IMG/VR virus record: IMGVR_UViG_3300010355_000588
Reading direction: 5' to 3' (one strand)
Origin: a virus
Taxonomy: Duplodnaviria; Caudoviricetes
Length of the DNA stretch: 64,000 nt
The position numbers and the translations under genes were made by a program. Under the pieces are notes generated by a model. The model did not search any database. It was not told the DNA's origin and was given only the letters and a program-made list of their open reading frames with translations. This document shows, in pieces, positions 3,154-20,792 of this stretch (position 1 is the stretch's first letter; the number at the start of each line of letters is the position of its first letter).

Positions 3154-3927
3154 TTATTTATCTAGAACCTGAGTCTTCAGAAGGCCCCTGATTTCTTGAA
3201 CATATTTCGAGATTTCTTCCCGATTTACCTTATATTTCTTGGAAATGGTGGCAACAGGCAAACCATCTACATGGGCACGGAATACTGCCACTTTGCGTTT
3301 TCCACCGACTTTAGATTCTAGACCACTAAGAACATTATCGATTTTGGAGAAGATTTCTTTATAATAGATCTTGTCTTGGGTGTCTTCAGCTGAGTGTTCG
3401 AGCTGAAGCAAATCGCCAAAGGTGGTAGATGAGTCTTCAGAACTGACTGGAGTTTCCATAGACGTAACGGTGAACATGTTGCTCAGGGTAGTCTTGGCAC
3501 AGCGTTCTCCGAGCTTCGAGTGTTTGGCAAGCTCGTCATTGGAGGGGGTATATCCATGTTGTTCAATCCATGCATTCTTTTCTTCGTTGAGCGTCCGGAT
3601 CTTTTCATATTGGTTGACCGGAAGACGGACAGTGCTGCGATGGTTCTTGATGTAGCGTTGGATACGGCCCATGACATTGTAACGAGCGATAGTGATGAAC
3701 TTATGGCCGAGACTTGGATCGAATTGTTCGGCAGCCATTGTAAGTCCAAGAAGACCTTCTTGAAGCAGATCCTCGAATTCAGCGACGCCATAAGATCCAG
3801 CATATTTCCGAACCATCATCATAGCGAACTTCATGTTGTGTTCCACTAGTTCGTCACGAGTGGCCACCTTTTCTTGTTCACGGGTAAGCGGCGCCTTATA
3901 CTTTGTACTAGACAGATTGAAACTCAT
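3154..3927 (-). CDS. Sigma-70 family RNA polymerase sigma factor
   Basis: Region 2 (LVEHNMKFA...EDLLQEGLLGLTMAAEQFDPSLGHKFITIA), VRLP, region 3 (GYTPSNDELA, SMETPV), C-terminal HTH. Confidence 0.9.
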   Translation of the reverse strand: MSFNLSSTKYKAPLTREQEKVATRDELVEHNMKFAMMMVRKYAGSYGVAEFEDLLQEGLLGLTMAAEQFDPSLGHKFITIARYNVMGRIQRYIKNHRSTVRLPVNQYEKIRTLNEEKNAWIEQHGYTPSNDELAKHSKLGERCAKTTLSNMFTVTSMETPVSSEDSSTTFGDLLQLEHSAEDTQDKIYYKEIFSKIDNVLSGLESKVGGKRKVAVFRAHVDGLPVATISKKYKVNREEISKYVQEIRGLLKTQVLDK

Positions 3928-5051: not shown

Positions 5052-5390
5052 TTACTTCATCTTACCTTCTGCTTCCGCCTCTTTTTCCATTTTATCCAAT
5101 CTTGTGTAGTAATCCGGGATCTCAGCAAGATGATCCATGGCGATCTTCTTAGCCAGTGCTTCTTCTAACTGAGGGTTTACTCCCTTAGTAACGTGTTCCA
5201 TCTCGACACGGATTCCCATAGCTAACTCTTTTGGATCTACGTTTATTGGTTCGGCGGCTTCGTTCGATAGTCCGCCTTGTACCAACACTTTGAATATGTC
5301 GTTCACTCCAGGTATAGTAGAAGAAGTTGTCATCACTTCATATGGATGAGCCATCTCGAGTAGCTTGCTGATTCGTTTTTCAAATTTCAT
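5052..5390 (-). CDS. DUF5661-like protein with a putative capsid-targeting N-terminus
   Basis: ELAMGIRVEMEH...IAMDHLAEIPDYYTRL motif; begins MKFEKRISKLLE. Confidence 0.7.
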   Translation of the reverse strand: MKFEKRISKLLEMAHPYEVMTTSSTIPGVNDIFKVLVQGGLSNEAAEPINVDPKELAMGIRVEMEHVTKGVNPQLEEALAKKIAMDHLAEIPDYYTRLDKMEKEAEAEGKMK

Positions 5391-5425
5391 GGAAGTATCC
5401 TTTAAATATTGCCTTTAGCATATGA

Positions 5426-5908
5426 TTATTTATCTGCGGACATCTTAGGCACGCCAGCTGGAAATATTTCTTTCTCAGTGAGTATGATGAATTTAGCACC
5501 TTTAGCTTCAGCGAACTTGGAGGCAGCATTCCACTTGGCGGTATTTCTAATGTACGTCATTGCTTCTTCGTAGTACCGTTTGTCTGACTTTCTCCCCTTA
5601 ACCGGCATTATGGTCTCTTTGTGGGGTTTGACTTCGCAGTATATCTTGCTGATCTTTCCAGTCTTGTCCTTTACAGTAAAGGACAGATCGATAAAATATC
5701 TATGGGTGGTTCCGGCGCGCGATGGATCCACATATTCTACCACTGTCGATTCCGATCCCCATTGGAGGATGGCGGGATTAAGGTCCATATATCTAAAGCA
5801 TTGCAATTCCCAGGCCGAGCGGAAATAAATTTTTTGTAAGCACCCTATATACTTTTCCTTATTTCTAGGAACGAACTTGCCCTGCTTATAGCCATAACCC
5901 TTTTTCAT
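5426..5908 (-). CDS. Head completion nuclease (gp4-like, TnsA-type PD-(D/E)xK)
   Basis: YKQGKFVPRNKEKY, FRSAWE, WGSE, HRYFID, EVKP, NTAKW, FIILTE. Confidence 0.9.
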   Translation of the reverse strand: MKKGYGYKQGKFVPRNKEKYIGCLQKIYFRSAWELQCFRYMDLNPAILQWGSESTVVEYVDPSRAGTTHRYFIDLSFTVKDKTGKISKIYCEVKPHKETIMPVKGRKSDKRYYEEAMTYIRNTAKWNAASKFAEAKGAKFIILTEKEIFPAGVPKMSADK

Positions 5909-6977
5909 AATCTTCCAGAAGTTGTTCTTTTGTTATCCAGCATTTAGCTCGCTTTTTGATATTAACTGAACATTCTAACATCTGTAAATTAGCAACTGAC
6001 GCTATAATTTCAGCTGGTATCTTCTGCTTAAATCCTTCAGCAATAGAAAAAATATGATCTAGATGATAACTATTTATTCTTCTATACAGATGGTTTGGGT
6101 TAATAATGTGTTTGTATTTCTCATAATTTATTTCAGTTAACATACTAACTTGTTTATAGTAATCATATCTTTCTATATCTTCTTGAGTTAGCTCTTTAAA
6201 TGGCTTTCTCTTTTTTAGCCAAGTTAATTTCTTTTTCTGATAAATTTTGTCTCTTTCTTTATCCTCAATATTTTCCCACCAATTTTGGCATTTTGTGTGT
6301 AATTTTTTAATAAATTCTTCCTTTTCAACTGGATTTAGTTTGTTCATCCAACTAAATTTATTGCTTCTTTCTTCTTTTGACATTTTTCCTATTTGTTCAT
6401 TTATCGTATTTTTTGATTTTGTGAATATTTCGCTTTTCTCTTCATCAGTTCTGTTCTTCCATACTTCAGTCTGGCCGTTTTTGGTTTTTTCTATAAATGC
6501 TGAATATCTATCTTCGTCGTGTTTTAATGTTTTTCTGAAATCAGCAGCTGCACATGATCTACACCTAAAGGTATCTTGCTTCTTGATATACTTGGCCTCT
6601 TCAGAAGATATGATATTGAAGGTCTTCTCTTTTTTGCAGTCTATACAATGCAACGTTATATCTATTCTAGGCAACATTTTAGCCTGGCTTCTACATTTGT
6701 TGGAACAGGTATCTGAATAACCAACTGTCAGACTAAAATACTTTCTATTCTTCTTCTGGCATATTGGACACTTTTTGTATTCTATGGCTACGTCATTTAA
6801 AAAGCAGTATAGACGTTCGCTATATGAAATATCTCCGAACTGTTCAGTGCTTTTTATTATATAGTTGAAAATAGCAGGGTGTTTGGATTTAGTAAAATTC
6901 TTAAATCCTTGGGTGTTGAAATTCATTTTCTCGAGAGTGGTTCTTACGAAATTTTTGAGAACTTCTTTGCGTAGCAT
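5886..6977 (-). CDS. Putative HNH homing endonuclease
   Basis: AT-rich; CxxC Zn motifs; C-terminal YHLDHIFSI...NLQMLECSVNIKK; has its own late promoter. Confidence 0.7.
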   Translation of the reverse strand: MLRKEVLKNFVRTTLEKMNFNTQGFKNFTKSKHPAIFNYIIKSTEQFGDISYSERLYCFLNDVAIEYKKCPICQKKNRKYFSLTVGYSDTCSNKCRSQAKMLPRIDITLHCIDCKKEKTFNIISSEEAKYIKKQDTFRCRSCAAADFRKTLKHDEDRYSAFIEKTKNGQTEVWKNRTDEEKSEIFTKSKNTINEQIGKMSKEERSNKFSWMNKLNPVEKEEFIKKLHTKCQNWWENIEDKERDKIYQKKKLTWLKKRKPFKELTQEDIERYDYYKQVSMLTEINYEKYKHIINPNHLYRRINSYHLDHIFSIAEGFKQKIPAEIIASVANLQMLECSVNIKKRAKCWITKEQLLEDYEKGLWL

Positions 6978-7006
6978 GATGGTATTCTTTCTTATGTGGT
7001 TGAAAG

Positions 7007-7014
7007 TATTTATA
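7007..7014 (-). promoter_or_regulatory. T4-type late promoter TATAAATA
   Basis: Exact motif 30 nt upstream of the HNH gene. Confidence 0.65.
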
Positions 7015-7024
7015 TAAGAAAGAT

Positions 7025-7050
7025 AAAAAAGGGAAGCATTGCGCTTCCCT
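7025..7050 (-). terminator. Intrinsic terminator
   Basis: AGGGAAGC-gcaat-GCTTCCCT followed by a T-run. Confidence 0.8.
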
Positions 7051-7085
7051 ACTTCCGAATTACCACATAAGGAAGATAATATTAT

Positions 7086-7430
7086 TTATTTCTTAGCTCC
7101 AATCAGTTCATCGCGAAGTATCTTGCCTAGCCTTTCGTTTTTGTTCTTGACGTCGGCTTTGGTAAAGGAGGTAGAATGTTTCTGGTTGAGATATTTTAGG
7201 GTAGCTTCGATTTCCTTGTCGTCGATGTCTGGATCTTTACTAACTGCTCTGGTAAGAAAACTTGCAGTAGAAGAAAATGCTTGATCCTTATATCTAGCCA
7301 TCGGCTCGCCCATGAGAGCAGCAAGAATTAGAATATTAGACAAAAAGTTACTTAGCTTTCCCTCTTCTAATTCGACAGTTTGGGCAGGTTCGCTTTCTAG
7401 AAGGCTTCTTACTTTTTGTTCGAACTTCAT
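7086..7430 (-). CDS. Putative internal head protein (MKF...LLE family)
   Basis: Probable start ATG 7430, MKFEQKVRSLLESE, with AAGGA RBS. Confidence 0.65.
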   Translation of the reverse strand: MKFEQKVRSLLESEPAQTVELEEGKLSNFLSNILILAALMGEPMARYKDQAFSSTASFLTRAVSKDPDIDDKEIEATLKYLNQKHSTSFTKADVKNKNERLGKILRDELIGAKK

Positions 7431-7440
7431 CTGGTGTTTC

Positions 7441-7560
7441 CTTAGCTTCCATATTCTAGCGTTCTCTGATTGTCTGGTGCCATATTCAGGCATTTGTCTT
7501 CATGTCGTCATGGAAACAATTATGGAACGTCTCTCTTATTTGTTTTTCTTCAAATTTCAT
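7441..7560 (-). pseudogene. Remnant of an MKF-family gene
   Basis: Starts MKFEEK, stops after 24 codons; another frame ends at the next gene's RBS. Confidence 0.4.
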
Positions 7561-7564
7561 CTTA

Positions 7565-7819
7565 TCAGCCTCTATTTAGTTCTCGTTTTTCGTCAACAAG
7601 TTCCACATATTGCTGTTGCAAATCGTTTATGTTCCATTCTAAGTCATAATTTTCTTTCTTGATCTTTTCAGTATAAGATGCTAAAGCCTTCTGATTGTCT
7701 TCCAACTTTTTCTTAGACTTTCCTATGTCTTTAGATATCTTATCTATTTTTGCTTGAATCTGTTTCAAGTCTGACTGTTTGTCTTCAAGCAACTTGTCGA
7801 TTTTTGTCTTGAACTTCAT
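7565..7819 (-). CDS. Putative internal head protein, coiled coil
   Basis: MKFKTKIDKLLED start. Confidence 0.65.
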   Translation of the reverse strand: MKFKTKIDKLLEDKQSDLKQIQAKIDKISKDIGKSKKKLEDNQKALASYTEKIKKENYDLEWNINDLQQQYVELVDEKRELNRG

Positions 7820-7830
7820 TTTATTATCCT

Positions 7831-8265
7831 TTATGGAAGCAAATAAAATGTATCTTTTCCACGCATCTTGGTCTCAGTAGCAGCCGCCTTCAGAGCATCC
7901 TTATATTTGCCACGATATTGGAATGCTTGGTCGTCCTTGTAGCTCTCTCCCGAGCGCAGGTACCCGATATGGAACATGAAATATCCTGTTGCAGTTGCCG
8001 CAAATTTTGGTTTCTTCCCATGGACAGCTTCATACTTGATGGTGTCATAAGTTACTCCATCGATCTTTGATTCTGATTCCAACAATTCTTGAATTTTTTC
8101 TTCGAACTTCATAATATTTCCTTCTGGTAGTTTGTCATAATCCACCCCATCTATCCATTCCTTATCCCATACCCACTTCCATTCGGCGGGAGTGGCTGCC
8201 TTTGTCTCATATTGAGAACGCTTGGCCTGAATCAGTTTGAACTGTTTTTTAGATTTAGCAGGCAT
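7831..8265 (-). CDS. MPAKSKKQ (DUF3008-like) peptide fused in frame to an MKF-family protein
   Basis: Internal MKFEEKIQELLESE at ATG 8112; C-terminal half resembles 8566-8823. Confidence 0.6.
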   Translation of the reverse strand: MPAKSKKQFKLIQAKRSQYETKAATPAEWKWVWDKEWIDGVDYDKLPEGNIMKFEEKIQELLESESKIDGVTYDTIKYEAVHGKKPKFAATATGYFMFHIGYLRSGESYKDDQAFQYRGKYKDALKAAATETKMRGKDTFYLLP

Positions 8266-8555
8266 TAAGCAAGCATATCTCCAAATCCATAACCAAGATC
8301 TATATTGAATTTGTTGGACGCCAAAGTTTCGGCAACTTTCGTCTATTCTGCTTCCTTCTTATCTAAACGATTTCTCAAATTCGTCGCGTCGACTTCGATA
8401 TTGTAGAGTTTGATAAGCAAGTCTCTTAACGCTTTAGGAGTATTTGTATCTTTCATCAGCGCTGGCACGTCATTGCCATATAATGGACCTGGATTATCTA
8501 GATAATTTTGGTATGCTGATTCTTCCAGTTCTTTGATCTTTTCGTTAAATTTCAT
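8265..8555 (-). CDS. Putative internal head protein with an in-frame TAG at 8343-8345
   Basis: MKFNEKIKELEES start; the frame continues 25 codons past TAG to a TAA that overlaps the next ATG (TAATG). Confidence 0.55.
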
Positions 8556-8565
8556 GTCAGCGCCT

Positions 8566-8823
8566 TTATGGTTTTACATAGCTTAGTTCTTTTTCGCCAG
8601 CCTTCTTTGCTTTCTCAATGGCCTTCTTCTTGGCGTCCTTATAGGAACCCTCATATTGGAAAATCTTGTCAAGATATTTGGAATCCTTAGGACCCGAATG
8701 GGTTCCAATCAAGAATGAGAATATTCCGTTATCAGTGTCCTTCGGTTCGTCTTTTGCTTTGAAATATGGATTCGATGCCTCATCCAATAGCTGACTGACA
8801 TATTCTATGAATCTATGTTTCAT
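8566..8823 (-). CDS. Putative internal head protein
   Basis: MKHRFIEYVSQLLDEA; FQYEGSYKDAKKKA is paralogous to 7831-8112. Confidence 0.65.
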   Translation of the reverse strand: MKHRFIEYVSQLLDEASNPYFKAKDEPKDTDNGIFSFLIGTHSGPKDSKYLDKIFQYEGSYKDAKKKAIEKAKKAGEKELSYVKP

Positions 8824-9152
8824 TCGAATATCTCCGATGCTTTTCCAACAAGCTTATTGTCAACATATACGTTATAGTCAATTTTGCGAGATGGGTTCAG
8901 ATCCCGCACCCTCTTGTAAGTCTCTTCAGCAGCATCGATATTGAGCATGGGCTTCTTGGCATCGTGCATTTTGCTTTCGGTTCCATCGTTCTTGAGAGAT
9001 ATGAGCATTACTGGTTTTTTGTCCTGCCGATATTTTGCCAGATCGCTAAAGGCGTGTTTCCAGCCTTTGATAGCTTCTCCCATGGAAGTCTCCTCTGATT
9101 TGCCAAAGGTCGTTGTTCCTAACAACGCTTCAGCAAGTTGGTTGAATTTCAT
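8820..9152 (-). CDS. Putative internal head protein
   Basis: MKFNQLAEALL start; ATGA coupling to the next gene. Confidence 0.6.
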   Translation of the reverse strand: MKFNQLAEALLGTTTFGKSEETSMGEAIKGWKHAFSDLAKYRQDKKPVMLISLKNDGTESKMHDAKKPMLNIDAAEETYKRVRDLNPSRKIDYNVYVDNKLVGKASEIFE

Positions 9153-9269
9153 AGCAATCCTTTATCATATTTGTTAGATTTGTTAAATTTGTTATTCATT
9201 ATTTTTGCCTATAGTTACTATATAACAAGATTGGGATTTGTCAATAAAGCTATAGACAAAAATACCAAC

Positions 9270-9572
9270 TTATTTTGACTTCTTATATGCAGCTTCAAAG
9301 TCTTTCATCGCCTTAGCTTTGTCTACTTTGGCATCTGGACCAATTGGAAGGAACATCGCAAGCTTTCCATTGATGTAGATTCCCTTTCGGACGACGTCGA
9401 ACTCGGCATCTGGATATTTCTTAAGGAATTCAGCTTGGACTTCGTCAAGAATAGCAAGTGCTTTCTTAGAGACGTCGTCTTTCTGAAACTTAATATCGTT
9501 CATGTAGCGAGAAATATCTTCATGCGAGTAGGAAGCTTCGAGAAGTGAAGCAATTTTTTCTTCAAATTTCAT
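9270..9572 (-). CDS. Putative internal head protein
   Basis: MKFEEKIASLLEAS; late promoter TATAAATA at 9594-9601. Confidence 0.65.
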   Translation of the reverse strand: MKFEEKIASLLEASYSHEDISRYMNDIKFQKDDVSKKALAILDEVQAEFLKKYPDAEFDVVRKGIYINGKLAMFLPIGPDAKVDKAKAMKDFEAAYKKSK

Positions 9573-9615
9573 GGTATATTCTCCAGTTTATTTTATTTAT
9601 AGAATCATTTAGATA

Positions 9616-10182
9616 TTAATTTACGTATTTCTTTATCAGATCATATGTTTTCTTATCCAGATTTACCATGCGCTCCTTGGTTCCTTCGAAGTCGTCGTTC
9701 TTTATATGGTTTCTGACCTCAGTAGCCGACATTACTCTATCTGACAGGGTTACTTCTAGGTCTCCGTTCAGTTTAGTTACGTAGTTCTGAGCCATTTGCT
9801 TGTAGAAAGGTATTCTATCTTCTCCAGCTATCAGCTCCACAGGTTCGTATCCTTCAGCCCTCAGCTTATCGAAGATTTTTACTAGGTCCGCTGATTCTAC
9901 CTGAACGACATCCTTTATCTTAGATATTCTAGCATTTCTGATTATTTTCTCCTGGACATCAGCTGGAAATGGATTCTTGTCTTTATCTTTAGAAGACACC
10001 GTTCCCTTTACAAGAAGCATGATAACTGGATGTTTGGCCTTCTTTACCATAGCTGCGTGTCCGATATGGAATGGCGAATATCTACCAATGATAATGGTGA
10101 CTTTGGTTTTAGCGGGTTCCAAGACATGGTCGTTTGGATTGAAGGCTTCTAAAATTTGTTTGCAACGTTCTATAAATTTCAT
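9616..10182 (-). CDS. HIGH-motif nucleotidyltransferase (cytidylyl/NMN-adenylyltransferase-like)
   Basis: GRYSPFHIGH, KNPF, AGEDR, MSATEVR; start moved to ATG 10182 (MKFIERCKQILE, ATGA overlap). Confidence 0.85.
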   Translation of the reverse strand: MKFIERCKQILEAFNPNDHVLEPAKTKVTIIIGRYSPFHIGHAAMVKKAKHPVIMLLVKGTVSSKDKDKNPFPADVQEKIIRNARISKIKDVVQVESADLVKIFDKLRAEGYEPVELIAGEDRIPFYKQMAQNYVTKLNGDLEVTLSDRVMSATEVRNHIKNDDFEGTKERMVNLDKKTYDLIKKYVN

Positions 10183-11246
10183 AATTTCACCAAAGATATA
10201 ACTTTGACGCCAGGGGCGCCACAAATAACTTCCCATTTTGGTCTTTTATTAGATTCAGCTGACGGCTTTCCTTCCCAATATAATTTTACTTCTTTCATTA
10301 ACAAATCACCATATTTTTTAGCATTATCCTTTCTTTGCTTTGCTGTTTCAGCAAATTCATCTTCTTCTTTCCATCCTGCTCTAATACTTTCAAATTCATC
10401 GATTATGTTCATATCTGCTATATGATATTTTCCAAGTGGTTCTACCATATAAATATATGACCTGCCTAATTTTTTAGCATTATTAACTAGATCATCTAAT
10501 TCCTTGAACGCAAAAACACTGTTCAATCTAGGTGGCTTACTTGATGGTCTATGTTTTTCGAATATTTCTTCTAAATGTTTAATTGATAGATATACTGCCC
10601 ACATTCCACCTTTTACTTTCTCCAATGGGTCCCAATAGCCTTTGATGATTTCACCAGGTTTATATAATTCGGTATGTGTTGCGTGAAAAAACTGGTTTTC
10701 TTTTGGATTTTTAAATATTGCTCTAATATTTGTGTCTGCTTTTTTATCTTTTTCTTTAAAAGATTCTATAACCTGTTTTGTTACACCTATAATGAAGTCA
10801 GATACCTTCATGTTTTTAGGCTTTAGCCAGAGTTGTTCATTAGTTTTTTTGATATCTCCAAGCAATAAACTACCTTTCGCTTTAAGATAAGATCTATCTA
10901 TGATGTTTTTAGATACCTTGTCACGAAAAATATATTGCATCAATTTGTCTTTTGGAAATTTTTCGTAAATCTCTTTTATATGTTTGTCTGTAATTTCAAA
11001 GGCAAGCTGAATCATGCCATGAATATTAGAATCTGCGTTGAATGAATCGAAATCTTCATTGTATTCTAGATTATTTGGTATAAGCTATAATTCTTTATCA
11101 TAGAAAAGCTTGTCTAAAGATTTTACCGTATGATTAAGTTGTCCATTTTTTAGACTATTAAGATTGTCAAGGCCATATAATCCCGTCGCCATGTTATAAT
11201 TGTCTTCAAGTAATAGATATGCATTTACCAATTGTTCAAATTTCAT
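10179..11246 (-). CDS. ADP-ribosyltransferase-fold protein (DUF2441/Arr-like) with an in-frame TAG at 11085-11087
   Basis: FFHAT...PRLNSVFAF...YIYMVEP...YWEG...WEVI; coupled ATG 11246 (MKFEQLVNAYLLLE) is in frame, with only one TAG in between. Confidence 0.6.
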
Positions 11247-12436
11247 TTTCTATCTCCTCCAAAATAGGCTATTAGCGTGTTTATTTTGTCTTTGTCCATA
11301 TTGTTCAGCTTTGCTGCTTCGGCAGCTATGAACGCTGACTGATTGTCTTTCAGCGGAGAAGGCACGTTAGCTTTCTGTTGTTCCCACTGATCGATTATCT
11401 TATTGATGTCTTTCTGATATTGGTCAAGATGTTTAGCAAAGGTCTTTAGCAATTTGTCCTCAGTTTTGTTATCCATGACGTATTTGAGGGCGAACTTCCT
11501 GGCCTTATATCCGGTCACGTCAGCCATGAACTTCTTCTGGCGCTCTTCCAACATTCCAGATATCTTGAAATATTCTTCCTTTACATATTTCCATTCTGGA
11601 TTCTGGATGCCGACCAAACCACCGATGGTATGGAGAACCAACCCTTCTACTTTCGAGTCCTTGACTCCGAAGAGGCTGCCCTTTTCGTTGGCATATTTGA
11701 CGAAAGCTTCGTTTACTTTGTCTCGTAGCGATTCCAACTCTTCATGGTCGAGAGCATCCACATTAGTAACTACCTTCTTCATTGTCTTGTCGTCGACCTC
11801 GTAGAATAATGGTATGGATCCATTCCAGCGAAAGTCGACGTTGTTCTCGAGGACAGTGAACTCCTTGTTGGACAACGCTCGAATTTCTTTGTTCAGTGGA
11901 TGCCCAGGAACCTTTTCAAATTTTCCATTTTCTAAAAGCAATATGTCGAATATGACGAAGGTGGCGAAGGTGCCTAACTTCTTGGCGTCGTATTTAGTAG
12001 CCACAAAGGTTACGGTGCCATCCTTGTCAATGGGCAATCCATCCAAATAAAATAATTCTCCATATACCTTGAAGTCGCCATATTTCTTGTGTAGCTCCAG
12101 AAGCTTCTTACCAAACTTGCTTTCAATATATCTTAAAACTTCTCCATAGTTCTTCATTGGTCCAGAAAACTTGTCAGCCTTCTGCATGCCAGAGTTCGAC
12201 GTCTCCCCGAAGATCTCTCCTTGATAGACAGCGAACCGAAAGGATGAACCATCGATCTTCTCGGTAATTCGAAGTAAATCTAGATCTATGGCGCCATTCT
12301 TTATATATGGTAGAAGTTCCTTGAAGAACTGGATGAATTCCTTGTCATTCATCTGATGGATCTTCTTCATGGCTTCTCGCTTGGTCTTGGTGTCGACCTC
12401 TGCCTCATTCAATATGTAGTACTTTAGGAAGTTCAT
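11243..12436 (-). CDS. RNA/DNA-ligase-fold nucleotidyltransferase
   Basis: ITEKIDGSS (motif I, KxDG), VYGELFY (III), FVIFDI (IIIa), VEGLVL (IV). Confidence 0.75.
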   Translation of the reverse strand: MNFLKYYILNEAEVDTKTKREAMKKIHQMNDKEFIQFFKELLPYIKNGAIDLDLLRITEKIDGSSFRFAVYQGEIFGETSNSGMQKADKFSGPMKNYGEVLRYIESKFGKKLLELHKKYGDFKVYGELFYLDGLPIDKDGTVTFVATKYDAKKLGTFATFVIFDILLLENGKFEKVPGHPLNKEIRALSNKEFTVLENNVDFRWNGSIPLFYEVDDKTMKKVVTNVDALDHEELESLRDKVNEAFVKYANEKGSLFGVKDSKVEGLVLHTIGGLVGIQNPEWKYVKEEYFKISGMLEERQKKFMADVTGYKARKFALKYVMDNKTEDKLLKTFAKHLDQYQKDINKIIDQWEQQKANVPSPLKDNQSAFIAAEAAKLNNMDKDKINTLIAYFGGDRK

Positions 12437-13329
12437 GAATATTTCTCCAAGCCTTCTGGAATAGGCACGCCCTGGCTGATGAGACCTCTGACGACATCCG
12501 ACATTATTTTGTCACGTTTATCCGCATAGATGAAATCTTTATCCATGACGATAGAATATAGACTGTCGAAGGTCAGTACGTCTGATGGTTTGTATTTGTT
12601 TGGACCGAAAACATAGTCTAGAATCTTTTGTGGATCTTTAGTGAGAGTCTCTTTGTTTAGGGTCTTTACTGTAGCTGAGATGCCCTTCTTTCCCTTTATG
12701 CTCTGGGTTGCTTTACTTAATCCAGCATTCATGTCGAACATGAAGCGTTTCCATTCAACAGGAACCTCTATTCCTTCAGCATTGAACGCCTTTTCGATGA
12801 CTTCCATCTTGGATTGCTTGATGATACTGATTAGAAGCAGATTTCTATATAGACCTTTCCATTGGCTTTCCCATTCAGCTGGAGCATAATATGCGAAGGT
12901 TGAGAATTCGAGGTTGTCAGTAAGCATCAGATCGAGTTGAACAGACTGATTTTCTTGCTTTCCATCGATATTTGCGATCGGCCATGCTATAGAAATGATA
13001 GAAAATCCATAACTTGGAGTGATCTGATCGGTGAACTTTCTGGATTTGTCGCCAATGAAGTCGATGATGTCTTTTACCGTTGGCTTATTCTTATCTACCA
13101 TCTTCGTCATGTCTATAGCCAAATCGATATCTCCTGAAGATCCACCTGGCTTTTTCTTTCCAGTGCTTCCAAGAACTGCTACGTTGTCCTTTGTTAGTCC
13201 AAGGGTTGGCAGAAGTCTTTTGTAGATGTCATCCAGGGTAGCTTGCACGTTTTCCTGGTTGATTCTAGAAGCTTGGACAGCATTGCCGCCTTCCATTAGC
13301 CTTTCGAGATAATAATTTAGGAATTTCAT
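12433..13329 (-). CDS. DNA polymerase-beta superfamily nucleotidyltransferase
   Basis: LGSTGKK...SGDIDLAID and VQLDLM; start moved to ATG 13329 (ATGA overlap). Confidence 0.8.
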   Translation of the reverse strand: MKFLNYYLERLMEGGNAVQASRINQENVQATLDDIYKRLLPTLGLTKDNVAVLGSTGKKKPGGSSGDIDLAIDMTKMVDKNKPTVKDIIDFIGDKSRKFTDQITPSYGFSIISIAWPIANIDGKQENQSVQLDLMLTDNLEFSTFAYYAPAEWESQWKGLYRNLLLISIIKQSKMEVIEKAFNAEGIEVPVEWKRFMFDMNAGLSKATQSIKGKKGISATVKTLNKETLTKDPQKILDYVFGPNKYKPSDVLTFDSLYSIVMDKDFIYADKRDKIMSDVVRGLISQGVPIPEGLEKYS

Positions 13330-13925
13330 TTGAAGTCGATTTTTCCACGTTCGATTCTTTCTTGTATCCAATCTATCGTAGCATATGGACCTTTTATAGA
13401 TCCAACGCTATCTATGACATCGACGCCCGAACTATCTACGACGTCGACAGAAAAAGACGAGAATGTTTGAGATTCTATATATTTCTTCAGACTAGTCCAT
13501 GCCTTTAGAGACATCTTATTGGCAAAAGATATTCCATACATGCCAGCTGTAGGTGCTGAGAATCTGATCCAACCTTTTCCATAAGCCACCTTGAATGGCT
13601 TTATCATTGCTTGCATTGGGCTGGGAGAATCGGCATCCAAGAGGTGAGCAGCCAGATCCCGATGGGTTCTGAACTTCTTGTTGTCGAGGTTCAGTTGCTT
13701 TCCCTTTTCGTCGAACCAACAGGGCGTCAGTTGAGTGGCCTCGTTTAGACCAACCATCTCTTTTTTATGGTTCAATTTGAAAGTCTTGTCCTTGACATGC
13801 TTTATGCCATCTTTAGTATAAACGTCTCCCGAGAAATCTTTGTAAATTCCTGGAAGATTAGCCACCATCAGTATGGTGTCCTTTTCCTTCTCGAGAATTT
13901 CTTTGACTTTTTCTAGATATCTCAT
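13326..13925 (-). CDS. Putative internal head protein
   Basis: MRYLEKVKEILE start; internal LNE possible cleavage site. Confidence 0.6.
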   Translation of the reverse strand: MRYLEKVKEILEKEKDTILMVANLPGIYKDFSGDVYTKDGIKHVKDKTFKLNHKKEMVGLNEATQLTPCWFDEKGKQLNLDNKKFRTHRDLAAHLLDADSPSPMQAMIKPFKVAYGKGWIRFSAPTAGMYGISFANKMSLKAWTSLKKYIESQTFSSFSVDVVDSSGVDVIDSVGSIKGPYATIDWIQERIERGKIDFK

Positions 13926-14179
13926 AAGGTGTTTAGAATGTTTGAAAAGTCGTCCTTGATCTTCTGGTCGTCGAATTTCTTGGACATGTCAACCATCATG
14001 GACGTCAGCTTCGTTATGTTCGAATCGATATTCTTCATAGCAAGACCAAAAAGAGGTTCGAACATCTGACGTGCCAACTTATGCTTCTTTATGAACGAAT
14101 CTAAAGCAGCTATGAATTTCCGTTCCTTGTCCTCGTTTTCCAGCACCCTCTGATAAGCCTTCATGAATCTAAATTCCAT
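13922..14179 (-). CDS. Putative internal head protein
   Basis: MEFRFMKAYQRVLENE start. Confidence 0.55.
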   Translation of the reverse strand: MEFRFMKAYQRVLENEDKERKFIAALDSFIKKHKLARQMFEPLFGLAMKNIDSNITKLTSMMVDMSKKFDDQKIKDDFSNILNTL

Positions 14180-14193: not shown

Positions 14194-15207
14194 TTATATG
14201 TCATTATGGCCGACATCTTTATCGGTCACTTCGTTGTTGTACCATTCGGCGAAATCGAACATAGTCATGCCGCTAGTAAGATAGTCAGCATTGCTAAAGA
14301 ATAGTAGATTTCCGTCTTCAGCAACTGTAAACTTTCCTTGGGAGACAAGCGACTCTGCTAGTGCAGATCCAGATACCGCTCCAGATATTTCTTGCCAATA
14401 TCCAGATATGTCACCAGATATAGGTAGCCAGTCCCAATTCTTTCTATTTCTATCAGCCTTGATGAGACCTGCTTTAATATTTTCTTTGAATCCATCGATT
14501 CCAACAGTAACTGGAACATCATACCATCTATCCAACATGTAGCCATCTTCGCCAAATGGAATGAGATTCGGAGTAGCGTTGATCTTGAGAATCTTCGGAA
14601 GATCGTCGTCATATTCGCCAACGCCAGGAAAGAACCATGTCTTGAAGGTAAAGGAAACGTCGCCCAAACATCTATATGGAGCCGATTCAGGTAGATCTTC
14701 TGGAATAGTTGTCGAGACGCTTCCGTCCCAAACCACCTGGGATTTGATATTGCACGAAGGAAACTTTGGATGTTTCCATACGACGTAGATATCTGGCTGG
14801 AAGAATGGAATGAAGTTGTTTACTATCTGGTCTAGATCTTCTATATAGCGAGTTATCGCAGTGAGAGTGAAAGTGACATTTATTGGAATTGGAGTGGCTT
14901 GGGCTGTATTCGAATATCCATCAGTCCCAAATAGTAGATGGTTGTGGATAGAATGCACCCTCTGGACATCTCGGACGAATCCAACACGGTTTACAGCTAT
15001 CATAGGGACAGATAAAGTCTTGTTTGGATTTTCCAGAGACTTCAGAATTCTAGAGCGCTGTCCAAACACGCAAGGGACCTCAATAAGCTTCTGAATAGTC
15101 GGGTCATCTATTGAGCCCGTTCTTCTATCTATAACGATATTATTAAAGACATCCATGAACATCGCAGTGGCTATCTTTAATTCGGAATTATAGGATCTAA
15201 ATTGCAC
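14194..15207 (-). CDS. Tail sheath terminator (gp15-like)
   Basis: FMDVFNNIVIDR, IEVPCVFG, PIPINVTFTL, DQIVNNFIPFFQP, FTFKTWFF. Confidence 0.85.
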   Translation of the reverse strand: MQFRSYNSELKIATAMFMDVFNNIVIDRRTGSIDDPTIQKLIEVPCVFGQRSRILKSLENPNKTLSVPMIAVNRVGFVRDVQRVHSIHNHLLFGTDGYSNTAQATPIPINVTFTLTAITRYIEDLDQIVNNFIPFFQPDIYVVWKHPKFPSCNIKSQVVWDGSVSTTIPEDLPESAPYRCLGDVSFTFKTWFFPGVGEYDDDLPKILKINATPNLIPFGEDGYMLDRWYDVPVTVGIDGFKENIKAGLIKADRNRKNWDWLPISGDISGYWQEISGAVSGSALAESLVSQGKFTVAEDGNLLFFSNADYLTSGMTMFDFAEWYNNEVTDKDVGHNDI

Positions 15208-15313: not shown

Positions 15314-17008
15314 ATGTCTTGGTGGGCTAACTCATTGCAAAACGTTCTTGGCATGATAGGCGTAAATCCTAAGTCTAATCCAAAGTACGAAACATATTCT
15401 AAGGCAGATGATGAAGAAGAACCTAAGGACTCAAAGAAAAACAAAAAGCCAACCGATGGGTCAGTCGTAGATGAGTTTGTCGAAGATCTGAACTCTGACG
15501 AACGCATGCTTGTCGGTGGCCTTGGACACTTCGACCAATATACAGTAGGTGACAAAATCTATGGTTCGATCTCGACAAACAAATTTGCTCGAGTCATCTC
15601 ATATCGGAACATGATGAATATGGCCGAACTAGGCGATGCTATCGAAGAAATAGCTGATGCTTGCATAAATTTCGATGAGAATGAAGAATTATACTCCTTT
15701 TCTATTTCTGACAACATAGAACTTGACCAATATACTAAGAAAAGAATCGTCGATACGGTTAAAGATTATCTATCTTATTTCGAATTTGACAACAACTTTT
15801 TCGACTATCTAATCAAGTTCATTACCGAAGGCGAATTAGCTTTTGAGAACATCGTAGATTCTGAAAATGCTGACCAAGGCATCATTGGCGTTAGATACAT
15901 CGGAGCCGAATGCTACGAATACGCTTTCAACATGAAGACAAGGCAGAAGACAGGATTGACTATCTTCTCTCAGATGCTCGACGCGATGAATACCACCATC
16001 GCTGGACAGGGTGTTCCACTGACGAACAACCAACAGACATCGATAGGTAATGGACAGATGGGAATCAAGCGAAACAAGTCGCTGTTCATGCCATGGTCCG
16101 CCTTAACATATATAGATAGTGGTGCCTACTCGATGAATGGAACGATCGTGTTTCCTCTTCTCGAGAGGGCAAGGCGTGCTTACAATCAGTTATCTCTGAT
16201 CGAAGAATCCATTATCATCCATCGGTTGGCACGCGCCCCTCTCCGTCTTGTGTTCAACGTCGGAGTTGGAAAACTATCTAAGATGCGCGCCAATGAAGAA
16301 TTGCTTAAGATAGCCAAGAAATATCAGACAAAGAAAGTCTATGACAAAACCACCGGAAGCGTCTCAAATGCTTATGATACTCATTCTATCACTGAAAATT
16401 ATTGGTTCACTCGCCCAGAAGGAACTGAAGGAACCAACGTCGAAACTATCAGCCCAGGAGTAGAACTTGGAAATTTAGATGACTTAAACTACTTCGTTCG
16501 GAAATTATATTTGTCATTGAAGGTCCCATATACCCGCTATGCTGAGCCAACTGTCCAGATCGATAGCTCAGATACCCCTCCATATGAAGAATTCAAGTTT
16601 GCTAGATTTTGTCTTAGAATTCTAAACCGCATAGAAAAAGGACTAAAGGAAGGAATTGAAAAGCATCTTAGACTACGTGGCATGTGGAAAACAGACAAAT
16701 ACGAACTTAGCCAATATGATCTAAATTTTAGCTTTACTCCGCCACATCTATATGACCAATACATATCCCAGAAGACGTTGGATTTGAAGTTGAACAACTA
16801 TGATAAGTTCGTTGGAATTACTGACAAAATAAATAACGTTGGCTTGAAAAAATATCTTGACTATACTGAAGAAGACATCGCTAATCTCTGGAACTCCATA
16901 GAAGCTGGAAAGCTAAGAATGGCGAAGATCGAATTCAAAGAAAACAACGTCAAAGATCATGGCGATCCAGAACCAATAATGGACGACAACAAAAATAAGG
17001 CTTGGTAA
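15314..17008 (+). CDS. Portal protein (gp20-like)
   Basis: YRNM, AIEEI, IHRLARAPLRLVFNVGVG, ENYWF, YFVRKLYLSLKVP. Confidence 0.95.
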   Translation: MSWWANSLQNVLGMIGVNPKSNPKYETYSKADDEEEPKDSKKNKKPTDGSVVDEFVEDLNSDERMLVGGLGHFDQYTVGDKIYGSISTNKFARVISYRNMMNMAELGDAIEEIADACINFDENEELYSFSISDNIELDQYTKKRIVDTVKDYLSYFEFDNNFFDYLIKFITEGELAFENIVDSENADQGIIGVRYIGAECYEYAFNMKTRQKTGLTIFSQMLDAMNTTIAGQGVPLTNNQQTSIGNGQMGIKRNKSLFMPWSALTYIDSGAYSMNGTIVFPLLERARRAYNQLSLIEESIIIHRLARAPLRLVFNVGVGKLSKMRANEELLKIAKKYQTKKVYDKTTGSVSNAYDTHSITENYWFTRPEGTEGTNVETISPGVELGNLDDLNYFVRKLYLSLKVPYTRYAEPTVQIDSSDTPPYEEFKFARFCLRILNRIEKGLKEGIEKHLRLRGMWKTDKYELSQYDLNFSFTPPHLYDQYISQKTLDLKLNNYDKFVGITDKINNVGLKKYLDYTEEDIANLWNSIEAGKLRMAKIEFKENNVKDHGDPEPIMDDNKNKAW

Positions 17009-17011: not shown

Positions 17012-17722
17012 ATGAACCAACTGAACGAACTCAAACTAATCGTTGAGAACGATCCTCACGAACTCGAATATATTCTAGAACAAAAGAACGAACGCGCGCC
17101 TGGATTTCTAAGAATCAAAGGTCCATATATCGTCACCGAGAAAAAGAACGCCAATGGCCGTATCTATTCCAGATCGCTTATGGAAAAGTCGGTGGCTGAC
17201 TTCAAGACAAACTACATTGACAAATGCGTGGCCTTTGGAGAAATGAACCATCCAGACCATAACCATATTGACTACAACAATATCTGCCATAAGATCGTCT
17301 CGCTCACACAGGAAGAAGACATTTGGATAGGCGAATCAGTAGTTCTAATGACGTCAGCTGATGGAACTGTCAAAGGCACCCCTAAGGGCGACATACTTGC
17401 CTCGGTCATCCATCATGGCGGTAAACCAGGCATGTCTACCCGCGGCGTTGGAAAATTATCAGAAGGCAATGTCGTCAAAGACCAATATAAGATGATAACT
17501 ATCGACTGTGTCTCCAATCCATCTGGACCCAACTGCTACGTGAATGGCATTCTCGAATCGAAGACATTCATGATAGATACCTACGGAGACATCGTTGAGA
17601 AAGCATTCGAACAATTTCAGAGAAATCTCGAATCGATTCCAACCCACTCCATCAAGACAGACGAAGGTTCGAAGCATCTGATCGAATCGATAAAGAATTT
17701 CATCGATAGTCTAAAAGTATAG
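17012..17722 (+). CDS. Prohead protease (gp21-like)
   Basis: NANGRIY, GEMNHP, GMSTRGVG, DCVSNPS. Confidence 0.95.
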   Translation: MNQLNELKLIVENDPHELEYILEQKNERAPGFLRIKGPYIVTEKKNANGRIYSRSLMEKSVADFKTNYIDKCVAFGEMNHPDHNHIDYNNICHKIVSLTQEEDIWIGESVVLMTSADGTVKGTPKGDILASVIHHGGKPGMSTRGVGKLSEGNVVKDQYKMITIDCVSNPSGPNCYVNGILESKTFMIDTYGDIVEKAFEQFQRNLESIPTHSIKTDEGSKHLIESIKNFIDSLKV

Positions 17723-17957: not shown

Positions 17958-18383
17958 ATGAAATTTAGTAGATTATGCGAAAGCTTGCTTAACTCAAAAA
18001 CAATATTAGAACAAAAATTCACAAAAGCTAATATGTTTATGAAAGTTAGCCCAAAGGAATTTAATTTAGATCAAAAACAATTTGATAAATTAAATCTTTT
18101 TTTGCTCCGTGCGATATATTCTAATATAAACGCGGATAAGAGAGGCATAAAAATTGGGCTTACTTCTTCCGTTCTGAATTGGATGTTCGAAAAATTTTAT
18201 AAAGATGCTGAAAAATTCTTCAAAGTAACTTTTTCCGATTCCGCTAAAGAAGCGATGTTTGATCATATCAAATTTATTAATAAACTAAAAGGATCTGAAC
18301 TTGAAGATTTAGGCCGATTTATGCATGAACTTGATCCTACTCTATCGGACGACAAATATGCAGGCCGTCCATTTTGGAGTTAA
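17958..18383 (+). CDS. AT-rich hypothetical protein with an MKF-type N-terminus
   Basis: GGAG RBS, upstream ATAAATA, MKFSRLCESLL...ILE. Confidence 0.6.
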   Translation: MKFSRLCESLLNSKTILEQKFTKANMFMKVSPKEFNLDQKQFDKLNLFLLRAIYSNINADKRGIKIGLTSSVLNWMFEKFYKDAEKFFKVTFSDSAKEAMFDHIKFINKLKGSELEDLGRFMHELDPTLSDDKYAGRPFWS

Positions 18384-18421: not shown

Positions 18422-19300
18422 ATGAAAGACATTCTCAAGAAGCTTTTCGAAAGCATCGATCCTCAGAACTCTCTCATCAAAGAAGATGTTCGTGCTAGTC
18501 TCACTGAACAATTCGAATCGAAGATGGCTGAGCTGAAGGAAGCTGCATATAAGGAAGCATTGGAAAAGGTTGACGAAGAACATTGCGAACTGCTTGACAA
18601 GGTCCGTGCCAAAATCGACGAAGACCACTGTGAACTTTTGGACAAGGTTCTTGAAAAGATCGATGAAGAACACACCGAACTTCTCGATCAGGTCGTCGAA
18701 AAACTTCGCAGCGAAAAACTATCTGAATCCAATCGTGAAGTTGCTAAATATGTTTCAGATTTCCTCGATACCTATCTAGATGAAGCAATCCCAGAAACCA
18801 CTGTCAAGGAATCAGTCGAAACCGCCGCATGCAAGAAGATCTTCGAACAGATCAAGCAGGCGATGGCGACCTACGAAGTTTCTATCGATGCCGAAATCAA
18901 CGAAGCGTTTCTCGATGGCAAACAGATTATCGACGAAAAAGAAAAAGAACTTTCCAAACTCATGTTTGAAAAGATCGAACTTAAAAACGAACTCGAAGAT
19001 CTGAAACGCGCGAAGATCGTCGAAGAACAAACTAAATCGATGTCTCCTAAGCTCAAACTCTTTGTCGAAACGCAAGTCAAAGATGCCGAGCTCGACAAGG
19101 TTGAGGAGAAAATTGCTGAGGCAGTAAAGGCCTTTGACGCTGACGAAAAGCAGCTCCGTCAAAAACTAAATGAATCTGCCGATTCAAAATCCAAACTTGG
19201 AACGCTCGTCCCAGTTAGCGAAAGCACGACAGACAACGTGGATCCAATGATGGAAATGTATCGGAAGATGGTTGCGAAAAGCAAGCAATTGAATGGCTAA
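18422..19300 (+). CDS. Prohead scaffold protein (gp22-like)
   Basis: Acidic coiled coil immediately upstream of the MCP; VSDFLDTYLDE. Confidence 0.85.
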   Translation: MKDILKKLFESIDPQNSLIKEDVRASLTEQFESKMAELKEAAYKEALEKVDEEHCELLDKVRAKIDEDHCELLDKVLEKIDEEHTELLDQVVEKLRSEKLSESNREVAKYVSDFLDTYLDEAIPETTVKESVETAACKKIFEQIKQAMATYEVSIDAEINEAFLDGKQIIDEKEKELSKLMFEKIELKNELEDLKRAKIVEEQTKSMSPKLKLFVETQVKDAELDKVEEKIAEAVKAFDADEKQLRQKLNESADSKSKLGTLVPVSESTTDNVDPMMEMYRKMVAKSKQLNG

Positions 19301-19334: not shown

Positions 19335-20792
19335 ATGAAACTCACAGAAGGCGCACTTTACAGAGGTCTTCCCGCTAATTTCCAAGAACAGGTGTACTCC
19401 AAGTGGGCATCTGTCATCGAAGAAGGCGGAGACATCACCGACGAACGTAAGAAACTCGCTACAGCTATCGTTTTGGAAAACATTCAGAACGCCGAAGACC
19501 AACGCATTGGCCGTCTTCGCGAAGCATATGCTGGAATCTTTCCCCAAGCTGGCATGGGCGCTCAGACAACTGGTTCTGATGGCGGCGGCCAATTTGGCGC
19601 ATATGGCGACTTCGTCACGACTGGCGTAAATCCCAACGACGCACGTATCCCCTCCATCGTCATCCCAACTGCACGTCGTATGTTTCCCGAACTCATCGCG
19701 TTCGAGGTTGCTGGCGTTCAGCCAATGATGGCATCTGTCGGCTGGGCATTCGCCATCCGCGCGAAATACGGCAAGTTCGGCAAAGGCGGAGCTCAAGGCG
19801 TTGCTGAAGGTACTGAAATCGGCTACAACCAGCTTGACTCGGCATTCACCGGCGCATCCGGCAACGCAATGGAACTCTCTGCCAACAGTTATTTCCAGGC
19901 ATTTGCTGGAGCTCCTGGCGCGCCCAACGGCACGACCAAGTTCGCAAATCCATTCGGCCAAGGCGCAACCCTTGAAAATTCGGAATGGTGGAACATTGGC
20001 GAAGACATGCCCATGGTCACTTTCGACTATCTGAAGAAATCCGTTGAAGCAAAAACCCGTAAGGTTGGTGCACAATGGACTCCAGAACTTGCCGAAGACA
20101 TGATGAACACGCAGGGAGTCGACGTCAACTCCGAAATGATCGGAATGGCGCAGTATGAAATCCGTGCTGAAATCGACCGTCAGCTCATCACTGAGATGGT
20201 TGTCGCAGCTATCAACAACGTTGGAATGGACGGAACGACCCCAGATCCCCGCGTTTCCACATGGACTCCGGTTTCTGCAGACGGCCGTAACCAATTCGAA
20301 CGTATGCTAACTCTCTACACGCACGTCCTCGAAAAATCACAGGATATCGGAATCAAGACACGCCGTGGCTCCGCTACGTTCGCTATCATGAGTCCAAAAC
20401 CTGTCGCATTGTTCGAACAGATGGGCGACATCGACACGACTGGCCGTACGTCCATCAGCTCACAAGGCGTTGGCGTCGCGAAAATCGGAACGCTGAAACG
20501 CGGCAACCTCGCCTGCTTCCGTGACACGTTTGCCGGCGGAAACTATATCCTTCTCGGATACAAGGGACCAAATCCGTACGATGCGGGAGTTATCTATTGT
20601 CCGTATATTCCTCTCCAACTCGCAACCGCCGTTGGTCAGGAAAACTTCACACCGCGCATTGGCGTCCGTACCCGTTACGGAATCCTTGGCAACGTGTTTG
20701 GTGCGGGTAATTATTATCACCTCATCAAGCTCGACGGCATGTCCGGAACTCTGCTCAACGCAGACAGCGGCCGTGTCTTCACCTACAACTGA
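19335..20792 (+). CDS. Major capsid protein (gp23-like)
   Basis: LENIQ, RRMFPELIA, GVQPM, EAKTRK, EIRAEIDR, YCPYIPL, TRYG. Confidence 0.97.
   Translation: MKLTEGALYRGLPANFQEQVYSKWASVIEEGGDITDERKKLATAIVLENIQNAEDQRIGRLREAYAGIFPQAGMGAQTTGSDGGGQFGAYGDFVTTGVNPNDARIPSIVIPTARRMFPELIAFEVAGVQPMMASVGWAFAIRAKYGKFGKGGAQGVAEGTEIGYNQLDSAFTGASGNAMELSANSYFQAFAGAPGAPNGTTKFANPFGQGATLENSEWWNIGEDMPMVTFDYLKKSVEAKTRKVGAQWTPELAEDMMNTQGVDVNSEMIGMAQYEIRAEIDRQLITEMVVAAINNVGMDGTTPDPRVSTWTPVSADGRNQFERMLTLYTHVLEKSQDIGIKTRRGSATFAIMSPKPVALFEQMGDIDTTGRTSISSQGVGVAKIGTLKRGNLACFRDTFAGGNYILLGYKGPNPYDAGVIYCPYIPLQLATAVGQENFTPRIGVRTRYGILGNVFGAGNYYHLIKLDGMSGTLLNADSGRVFTYN

Follow-up and report, generated by a model that had tools for sequence, protein, structure and literature searches.

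Why would a tailed phage keep a polymerase-like enzyme, a ligase and other nucleotide-transfer enzymes among its late genes, and begin them with similar short peptides? The question is raised by a 64,000-nucleotide stretch of viral DNA (Duplodnaviria; Caudoviricetes; IMG/VR record IMGVR_UViG_3300010355_000588), called the window here at its full length, in which an original prediction had placed four such enzyme genes. All four open reading frames (ORFs) are present on the minus strand, and they are referred to below as genes A to D. The answer that we favour, as on balance the probable one, is that the products of A, B and D, and that of C if its amber codon is read through, are late head cargo that is cut by a gp21-type protease and injected, with A and B forming a repair unit. 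Judged from the sequence, packaging of the enzymes in the capsid is likely. The features concerned are the following.

12433-13329, minus strand: gene A, 298 amino acids (aa), a minimal nucleotidyltransferase resembling family X (Pol beta and PolX of African swine fever virus, ASFV)
13291-13329, minus strand: leader of A (codons 1-13), MKFLNYYLERLME, ending in L-M-E before GG, with GGNAVQ as the predicted mature N-terminus
11243-12436, minus strand: gene B, 397 aa, an Rnl2-type ATP-dependent ligase (KxDG) with the 11-aa leader MNFLKYYILNE
11085-11246, minus strand: 53-codon leader ORF, MKFEQLVNAYLLLE, coupled to B by ATGA and ending at TAG 11085-11087, in frame with C
10179-11015, minus strand: body of gene C, 278 aa, starting MIQLAFE, with a predicted ART-clan fold of the BC2332 type at residues 105-278
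9616-10182, minus strand: gene D, 188 aa, a HIGH-motif NMNAT-like nucleotidyltransferase with the 12-aa leader MKFIERCKQILE, coupled to C by ATGA

The leader and its counterpart in T4

The capsid-targeting sequence (CTS) of T4 is MKTYQEFIAE (PMC8442874). The first 10 residues of the internal protein IPIII suffice for packaging, and the prohead protease gp21 cleaves after L/I-x-E (PMC9026906). The internal proteins of T-even phages are diverse, only the CTS being common to them (PMC3012670), and T4 also packages an ART enzyme, Alt, which loses a 7-residue propeptide (PMC9026906). The resemblance that had been suggested between the leaders of the window and this targeting and cleavage rule agrees with these reports (PMC8442874; PMC9026906). 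In the window, the leader of A is followed by GG, and those of B and D are each followed by alanine. That each enzyme begins with a leader, as had been claimed, is true of A, B and D and fails for C, whose own ORF lacks one at its MIQLAFE start; the leader of C is encoded in the separate 53-codon ORF, in the frame of C.

The pattern M-[KRNE]-[FYLH]..[LIVM]-x-E begins 13 of the 15 genes within 5052-14179 as against three of the 77 other ORFs of the window (Fisher p = 2.4e-11), and eight of these 13 leaders have Glu at position 12. Since the leader codons vary synonymously among the genes of this array, it is the peptide that is conserved and the leader is not a DNA repeat, which points to selection on the peptide. 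The leader is also conserved beyond the window. In an alignment of 30 homologues of A, G15 never varies and F3, E13 and G14 hardly vary; [LIVMF]xE stands directly before [GS]G in 100 of 119 A homologues and directly before GGNA in 45 of 49 distinct homologues from IMG/VR, and the few leaderless homologues start exactly at M-GGNA. Relatives carry leaders such as MISFKKFIAE followed by GGNA in the A family, MKRFKTFVAE followed by A in the B family, MRLKKYLIE followed by S or MIKLKHLLE followed by G in the C family, and MKTYIEFITE or MKHIKLFEQFINE, both followed by A, in the D family. In each of the four families the leader stops precisely where the conserved mature domain starts. In the predicted structure of A (AlphaFold; pLDDT 92.4) the leader is a separate low-confidence helix, with a mean pLDDT of 53 over residues 1-10 and values below 50 at residues 10-12.

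The array thus shares with the CTS cargo of T4 a short N-terminal leader that closes with (L/I)-x-E, a nearby gene for an S77 prohead protease, mature proteins that are unrelated and have only the leader in common, and a location in a variable late region; Alt of T4 shows that an ART-fold enzyme can be cargo (PMC9026906; PMC3012670; PMC8442874). A, B and D have a leader of this type, C has one only with TAG 11085-11087 read through, and a gp21-type (S77) protease is encoded by the same phage. The differences are that the leaders of the window are 11-14 residues long (MKF..K..LLE) instead of 10, that about 14 genes are tagged in this phage as against four in T4, and that the PolX-like enzyme, the ligase and the NMNAT-like enzyme, known here from genes alone, are not among the cargo of T4.

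For the window phage we infer targeting, cleavage, retention and injection, together with the substrates of the enzymes and their role in repair, along the following lines. Each protein would bear an 11-14-residue leader of the T4 CTS type, with M-K-F, a hydrophobic position and (L/I)-x-E, by which it would dock in the scaffolding core of the prohead. The gp21-type S77 protease would then cleave after the Glu, and the mature enzyme would remain among the packaged DNA and enter the cell along with it. A, whose Asp triad is intact, would be a minimal polymerase or terminal transferase of the PolX-like kind and would make one functional unit with B, the Rnl2-type ligase. This unit would mend breaks in nucleic acid, most likely those of the incoming genome, by filling or tailing followed by sealing. 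D would be an NMNAT-like adenylyltransferase working with A and B, and C, with its ART-type fold, an additional cargo particular to this lineage.

The four gene products

The assignment of A to the Pol-beta-type nucleotidyltransferases (GS..DxD) holds and is narrowed by structural comparison. A contains GSTGKK..SSGDIDL and, further on, VQLDLM, and 30 homologues all share the residues G54, S55, D67, D69 and D133. The top 50 matches of a Foldseek search with the model are all DNA polymerase beta. In an exhaustive structural scan (VIA-wide), which covered 48,161 chains, family-X polymerases take all of the first nine places (Z 8.2-10.6, with 163-194 residues aligned within residues 1-264 of the model); they comprise Pol beta, TdT, ASFV PolX, Thermus PolX, Leishmania Pol beta, Pol lambda and Pol mu. 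These matches span palm and thumb, whereas terminal uridylyltransferases (TUTases), poly(A) polymerases, CCA enzymes and CD-NTases align with A over only about 100 residues. The model therefore makes A specifically family-X-polymerase-like, rather than a generic Pol-beta nucleotidyltransferase. The catalytic core of family X (GS, DxD and a third Asp) and its palm and thumb are found in A, and a match to a sequence profile of the family is not; because of this lack of a sequence-family match, A is called PolX-like and not a member of family X.

ASFV virions carry PolX and a ligase. With ASFV Pol X and family X in general, A shares palm and thumb only, the arrangement GS..SSGDxD with the third Asp 64 residues downstream, Z scores of 9.9 to ASFV PolX and 10.6 to the catalytic domain of Pol beta, and a partnership with an ATP-dependent ligase, to which it is fused in relatives. 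It differs in the missing sequence-level family match, in an extra C-terminal helical region and a conserved N-terminal segment GGNA..RINQEN, in that its partner is of the Rnl2 type and not of the DNA-ligase type, and in that it is known from sequence and model. The likeliest chemistry of A and B would be fill-in or tailing followed by the sealing of nucleic-acid breaks, which would parallel viral PolX and ligase pairs. A tblastn search with A against GenBank phages found only Lak megaphages, at about 30% identity, and the A family, for which there is no Pfam model, comprises at least 150 metagenome clusters; it appears to be an unrecognized viral branch of PolX-like enzymes. A 306-aa protein of Stenotrophomonas phage Moby that starts MGGNVV was considered as a homologue of A and rejected (hhalign probability 1.2%). 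In the ESM Atlas, A-like folds are also joined to a PD-(D/E)xK nuclease, in a cluster from archaea (600 aa), and are present in proteins of 894-990 aa that carry NTP_transf_2 or DUF6267.

B was correctly read as a ligase-fold nucleotidyltransferase with KxDG. Residues 57-269 match PF09414 (E = 2.6e-9; 37.9 bits, the cut-off being 27), with motif I as TEKIDG (K60, D62, G63) and motif IV as VEGLVL (E264, G265); across 16 sequences of the B family D62, G63 and G265 never change and K60 and E264 seldom do. B thus scores above the gathering threshold of the family and has its motifs I and IV. The closest neighbours of the ESM Atlas model of B are viral RNA-ligase clusters and clusters in which a ligase is fused to PF01467, and the model reaches a TM score of 0.45 to a cluster with Rnl2 and T4_Rnl2_C. 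In common with T4 Rnl2 and other PF09414 proteins, B has the Pfam match, the KxDG and EGxV motifs, and a predicted helical C-terminal region with no obvious OB domain. Unlike them it carries a leader, is fused in relatives to a PolX-like or HIGH domain, shows about 30% identity or less even inside its own family, and has no PDB sequence match. Neither tblastn against GenBank phages nor a scan of IMG/VR with peptides of B itself found a relative, and a PDB sequence search with B, as a single sequence or as a profile, gave nothing useful.

D, described at the outset as a HIGH-motif nucleotidyltransferase, scores above the PF01467 cut-off (28.2 bits as against 21) and contains SPFHIGH and MSATEVR, which correspond to the HxGH and ISxTxxR-type motifs of the family; it also matches phrog_395 (E = 1.7e-17). 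Its best score against the NMNAT equivalogs of NCBIfam is 28 bits, the cut-offs being 127-409, and D is on this evidence to be filed as NMNAT-like only and not as an NMNAT. Homologues of D are present in 389 GenBank phage records, mostly from T4-like cyanophages. Among them is ORF91 of S-SCSM1, annotated as NMNAT, which matches the model of the D family (E = 1.2e-29) and starts with MKSFLQFLKE followed by A. ORF91 was detected by mass spectrometry in CsCl-purified virions (PMC9602691), and NMNAT-like or cytidylyltransferase proteins are likewise reported from virions of S-CBWM1, S-SZBM1 and S-CREM2 (ORF154) (PMC10665884). The accessible parts of these two reports do not connect the leaders of such virion proteins with the CTS (PMC9602691; PMC10665884). 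A 1021-aa 'cytidyltransferase' of S-RIM2 starts with MKKFSAFLTE followed by A and follows a DUF6267 protein with a KWDG motif. What D shares with the cyanophage proteins is most evident in ORF91, with its match to the D model, its CTS-like leader and its detection in virions; the cyanophage proteins differ in their length (409-1021 aa as against 188 aa) and in their partner, which is DUF6267 (KWDG) and not A and B.

DUF6267 stands directly upstream of a leader-bearing HIGH nucleotidyltransferase at 2863-3756 of locus L081 (S-RIM2) and at 27459-31621 of locus L083 (S-SCSM1), and from its sequence it may be an unrecognized covalent nucleotidyltransferase of the ligase or capping type. The S-RIM2 protein of 298 aa, once considered as a homologue of B, received no support from the profile and is this DUF6267 protein. 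ORFs 89, 90, 92 and 93 of S-SCSM1, near ORF91, are annotated as virion proteins.

As to C, the claim of an ART-fold protein stood with respect to the ART-clan fold, the nearest structure being BC2332, and has to be amended in that the ORF is split from its leader by an amber codon. In the structural scan the predicted structure of C (pLDDT 87.4) matches 2aua_B with Z 12.7 and a root-mean-square deviation of 2.8 over 142 residues, far above the rest; weaker matches, over about residues 102-278, are Arr (Z 6.2), PltA (5.2), TreX (4.9), Scabin (4.4) and pertussis S1 (4.4). Foldseek gives 2aua a probability of 1.00, and a profile of the C family matches 2aua weakly in the PDB (E = 0.0054). The core fold of the ART superfamily is thus found in the model, and no Pfam or ART-clan family match is found in any of 39 members of the C family; a PDB sequence search with C as a single sequence gave nothing useful. 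R163, Y246, W247 and E262 are invariant in the family, and the His of its YH motif is replaced in some members. We take 2aua to be a member of DUF2441. DUF2441 is listed in the ART clan of Pfam (PMC7955679), and C is, from its model, a DUF2441/BC2332-like protein of the ART-clan fold. With BC2332 it shares the superposition of residues 105-278 and the motifs YH, PSRL..F and YW.G..E, and with Arr, PltA, TreX, Scabin and pertussis S1 the ART core; it differs from BC2332 in a helical N-terminal region of about 100 residues, in its leader and in the missing Pfam match.

Between the 53-codon ORF and the ATG of C there are one TAG (11085-11087) and 23 codons. Homologues of C, 316-363 aa in length, have the leader fused to the body, and when the family is aligned with MAFFT the TAG coincides with a position at which six of nine homologues have Gln, one transition away from CAG, the N-terminal similarity of the family being too weak for significance in BLAST. 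TAG ends 10 of the 86 ORFs of the window, including the gp21 protease gene, which rules out amber recoding as the code of this genome; with TAG an ordinary stop, that of C is due to a nonsense mutation or an error in sequencing, or else it is suppressed. Arg-TCT is the only tRNA that the window encodes, and low-level suppression by a tRNA from outside the window may occur. A second in-frame TAG is found at 8263-8555 (minus strand), where a 70-aa leader gene ends in KKEAE-TAG at 8343-8345 and 26 more codons are open up to a TAA that overlaps the next ATG; the two lone in-frame ambers thus fall inside one 3-kb stretch of late cargo genes.

Genome setting and recurrence in relatives

The phage is a very distant T4-like myovirus, the major capsid protein of which is at most about 31% identical to that of any GenBank phage; the contig is entered in the protein database with a length of 164 kb. 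Its assignment as T4-like follows from gp4, gp15, the gp20 portal, the S77 gp21-type protease, gp22 and gp23, all of which are encoded. Megablast of the region against GenBank phages gave no match. The further genes of the setting are the following.

5052-9572, minus strand: remainder of the leader array, with ten ORFs, most of them small (70-363 aa), of which nine have an MKF- or MKH-type leader
5426-5908, minus strand: gp4 head-completion gene, inside the leader-bearing array
13326-14179, minus strand: a 199-aa ORF with leader MRYLEKVKEILE and an 85-aa ORF with leader MEFRFMKAYQRVLE, linking gp15 to A by ATGA overlaps
14194-15207, minus strand: gp15 tail-sheath stabilizer (PF16724, E = 1.5e-23), which heads the co-directional chain
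15314-17008, plus strand: gp20 portal
17012-17722, plus strand: gp21-type prohead serine protease, S77 (PF03420, E = 1.9e-18; phrog_207, E = 7e-46)
18422-19300, plus strand: gp22, with 15 [LI]xE sites
19335-20792, plus strand: gp23 major capsid protein (PF07068, E = 1.9e-71)

The gp21-type protease gene lies about 4 kb from the enzyme genes, and its product is presumed to be the processing enzyme for the leaders. A candidate propeptide cut in gp23 is L-R-E at residues 61-63; the gp23 propeptide of T4 is 65 aa long (PMC9026906). ATGA (-4) overlaps join the 85-aa ORF to the 199-aa ORF, the latter to A, A to B, B to the 53-codon leader ORF, and C to D, and a 14-nt gap separates gp15 from the 85-aa ORF. 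Of the continuous ATGA chain that had been proposed for the four genes, the A/B, B/leader ORF and C/D overlaps are real, and a direct translational coupling of B and C is missing. The coding strand of the cargo array has two copies of the motif TATAAATA, at 9594-9601 and 7007-7014 (both minus strand), each copy being intergenic and upstream of a leader gene, and the former lying between D and the next leader gene. The motif is the late-promoter consensus of T4. The tight co-directional chain behind gp15 and these motifs within the array suggest that the enzyme genes belong to a late operon. Also encoded in the window is a sigma-70-family factor with regions 2 and 3 (3154-3927, minus strand), which is unlike the gp55-type late sigma of T4, and a 573-aa HNH/homing-endonuclease-like gene (20877-22598, minus strand; phrog_3339, E = 4e-117) directly follows the major capsid gene.

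In two genes of the array, 7086-7493 and 7831-8265 (minus strand), the MKF leader lies inside a longer frame that opens with an ATG, begins with MP and adds 21 and 51 N-terminal codons, respectively; a good AGGA-type ribosome-binding site before the MKF start makes the true starts ambiguous. The small leader proteins of 7831-8112 and 8566-8823 (minus strand) have a C-terminal motif, FQY.G.YKDA.K, in common and resemble paralogues, so that part of the array arose, it seems, by duplication. Outside the array, a 141-aa ORF with an MKF leader (MKFSRLCESLL; 17958-18383, plus strand) and no family match is placed between the genes for the protease and the scaffold, a position at which one might expect a prohead core protein.

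With an alignment of A, 80 IMG/VR loci carrying the gene were recovered, the neighbours being found by hidden Markov models (HMMs); 43 of them are well flanked, each side extending for 5 kb or more. In 65 of the 80 loci (39 of the 43 well-flanked ones) a D-type gene is found on the same strand as A and no more than 10 kb away, and a ligase is adjacent or fused to A in 25 (12 of the 43). C accompanies A in none of the 80. Co-occurrence in relatives, on which the idea of an enzyme kit had been made to depend, is thus borne out for A with B and for A with D, also in fused form, and not for C, so that a conserved kit of four genes is ruled out. As far as gene neighbourhoods indicate, the conserved unit is A and D, often with the ligase B, C being a lineage-specific add-on. 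The closest relative, L004, the gp23 of which is 50% identical to that of the window, has the order gp23-gp21-gp20-gp15-A-B-small ORF-D-small ORF, and the five genes from A on have MKF leaders.

A and B are fused in several phages to proteins of 659-718 aa. All five aligned A-B fusions keep [LM]-x-E at the junction, aligned with the leader of B, which suggests that the fusions are cut by the prohead protease, and in loci L056 and L058 they adjoin gp4-gp21-gp22-gp23. Fusions of a ligase with a HIGH domain are about 540 aa long (L002, L050), or 510-637 aa in viral ESM Atlas clusters, and an A-like fold is found in an ESM Atlas cluster in which 30% of the members have PF01467. PADLOC gave no real match, and NCBIfam gave matches for D only. 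The mature enzymes, all four with isoelectric points of 7.9-9.4, are compatible with DNA association, which is not decisive.

Cargo and its alternatives

Several observations weigh against injected cargo centred on DNA repair. The (L/I)xE motif is short and its loose version is frequent, occurring in 25% of the other ORFs of the window and in 40% of the ORFs of related loci. Single-sequence searches with A returned no Pfam, NCBIfam or PDB sequence match, B belongs to an RNA-ligase family so that its substrate may be RNA and not DNA, and C is interrupted by a TAG that is an ordinary stop here. In Stenotrophomonas phage Moby a B-like gene (hhalign E = 3e-5; HMM E = 7e-8) is adjacent to D and both are leaderless, Stenotrophomonas phages YB07 and Ps15 also have such a leaderless pair, and leaderless homologues of A exist, so that the module can work without packaging. 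[quoted passage not shown]

This last point is the starting position of one alternative, according to which targeting and cleavage do take place, but the work of the proteins is confined to head assembly or DNA packaging, such as the trimming or sealing of DNA on its way into the head, or they are degraded like scaffold, and nothing is delivered. The fate of gp22, gp67 and gp68, the leader-bearing 141-aa ORF at the place of T4-type core proteins between gp21 and gp22, and the A-B fusions inside head-gene modules would all fit. However, each of the enzymes has just one site, N-terminal and at a domain boundary, like the internal proteins and Alt of T4, whereas gp22 has many; a D-family protein persists in mature purified virions of S-SCSM1; and NTP-dependent enzymes would presumably find little substrate in the capsid. 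We regard delivery-free assembly as improbable. Still less credit is given to the idea that the shared N-terminus is a by-product of cassette recombination or of optimized translation starts in a hyperplastic late region, with the enzymes acting late in the cytoplasm, for example in DNA repair before packaging. The leaderless Moby pair and leaderless forms of A, the commonness of MK- starts and the frequency of the loose motif are in its favour, but the peptide is conserved while the codons differ, in distant phages Glu holds its place right in front of the conserved mature N-terminus, the motif persists at the A-B fusion junction, where translation initiation is irrelevant, and it matches the experimentally tested CTS of T4; of all the explanations considered this one seems to us the least probable.

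Two further alternatives accept packaging and differ in what the cargo does. In one, the cargo is centred on NAD: D would make NAD+ from NMN and C would ADP-ribosylate a host target as Alt does, for host takeover or as a counter to NAD-depleting defence, A and B being passengers. The best named matches of D are indeed NMNATs, the cyanophage literature reads the virion NMNAT-like proteins as NAD-related, and C has the ART-clan fold of the packaged Alt of T4 (PMC9026906). Yet D falls far below the NMNAT cut-offs (28 bits as against 127-409), C is amber-interrupted and was never found with A or D in the 80 loci, the consistent partners of D are A and the ligase, also in fusions, and no Nampt-type partner was seen; a cargo of this kind is about as improbable as action in assembly alone. 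In the other, A would tail or rebuild RNA 3' ends, as a CCA-adding enzyme or terminal transferase, and B would reseal tRNA or mRNA cut by anticodon nucleases or by RNases of abortive infection. This draws on the place of B in PF09414 (RNA_ligase), on its structural neighbours in the Atlas, which include T4 Rnl2-like clusters, and on the TUTases, poly(A) polymerases and CCA-adding enzymes among the lower matches of A (Z 6.5-8.2). It is countered by the matches over the full length of palm and thumb, which are with family X DNA polymerases only, the RNA enzymes covering the core of about 100 residues; by the lack of an end-healing kinase or phosphatase in the module; and by the fusion, in one cluster, of an A-like fold to a PD-(D/E)xK nuclease, which suggests DNA. 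RNA repair is accordingly quite doubtful as the purpose of the cargo, and packaged enzymes with an A-B repair unit remain the reading that we prefer.

The targeting principle is already known from T4, and the virion association of NMNAT-like proteins from cyanophages. We found no report in the literature of the PolX-like family, of its partnership and fusion with an Rnl2-type ligase and a HIGH nucleotidyltransferase, or of its systematic CTS-type leader. In its boldest and rather unlikely form, the preferred reading would be that T4-like phages of several uncultured lineages ship a PolX-ligase break-repair machine in the capsid together with an NMNAT-like helper, as precursors or as an A-B polyprotein cut at L-x-E and possibly activated by the exposed GGNA, which would mend nuclease damage from restriction, CRISPR or nicking before phage genes are expressed.

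If the leader works as in T4, the injected protein cargo of a phage would be readable from sequence alone, and such leaders could serve as packaging tags in phage engineering. [quoted passage not shown] The window phage and hundreds of its metagenomic relatives would then deliver nucleic-acid enzymes and not only small inhibitors, and a PolX-like enzyme and a ligase arriving together with the DNA would represent a new type of immediate-early counter-defence or genome maintenance.

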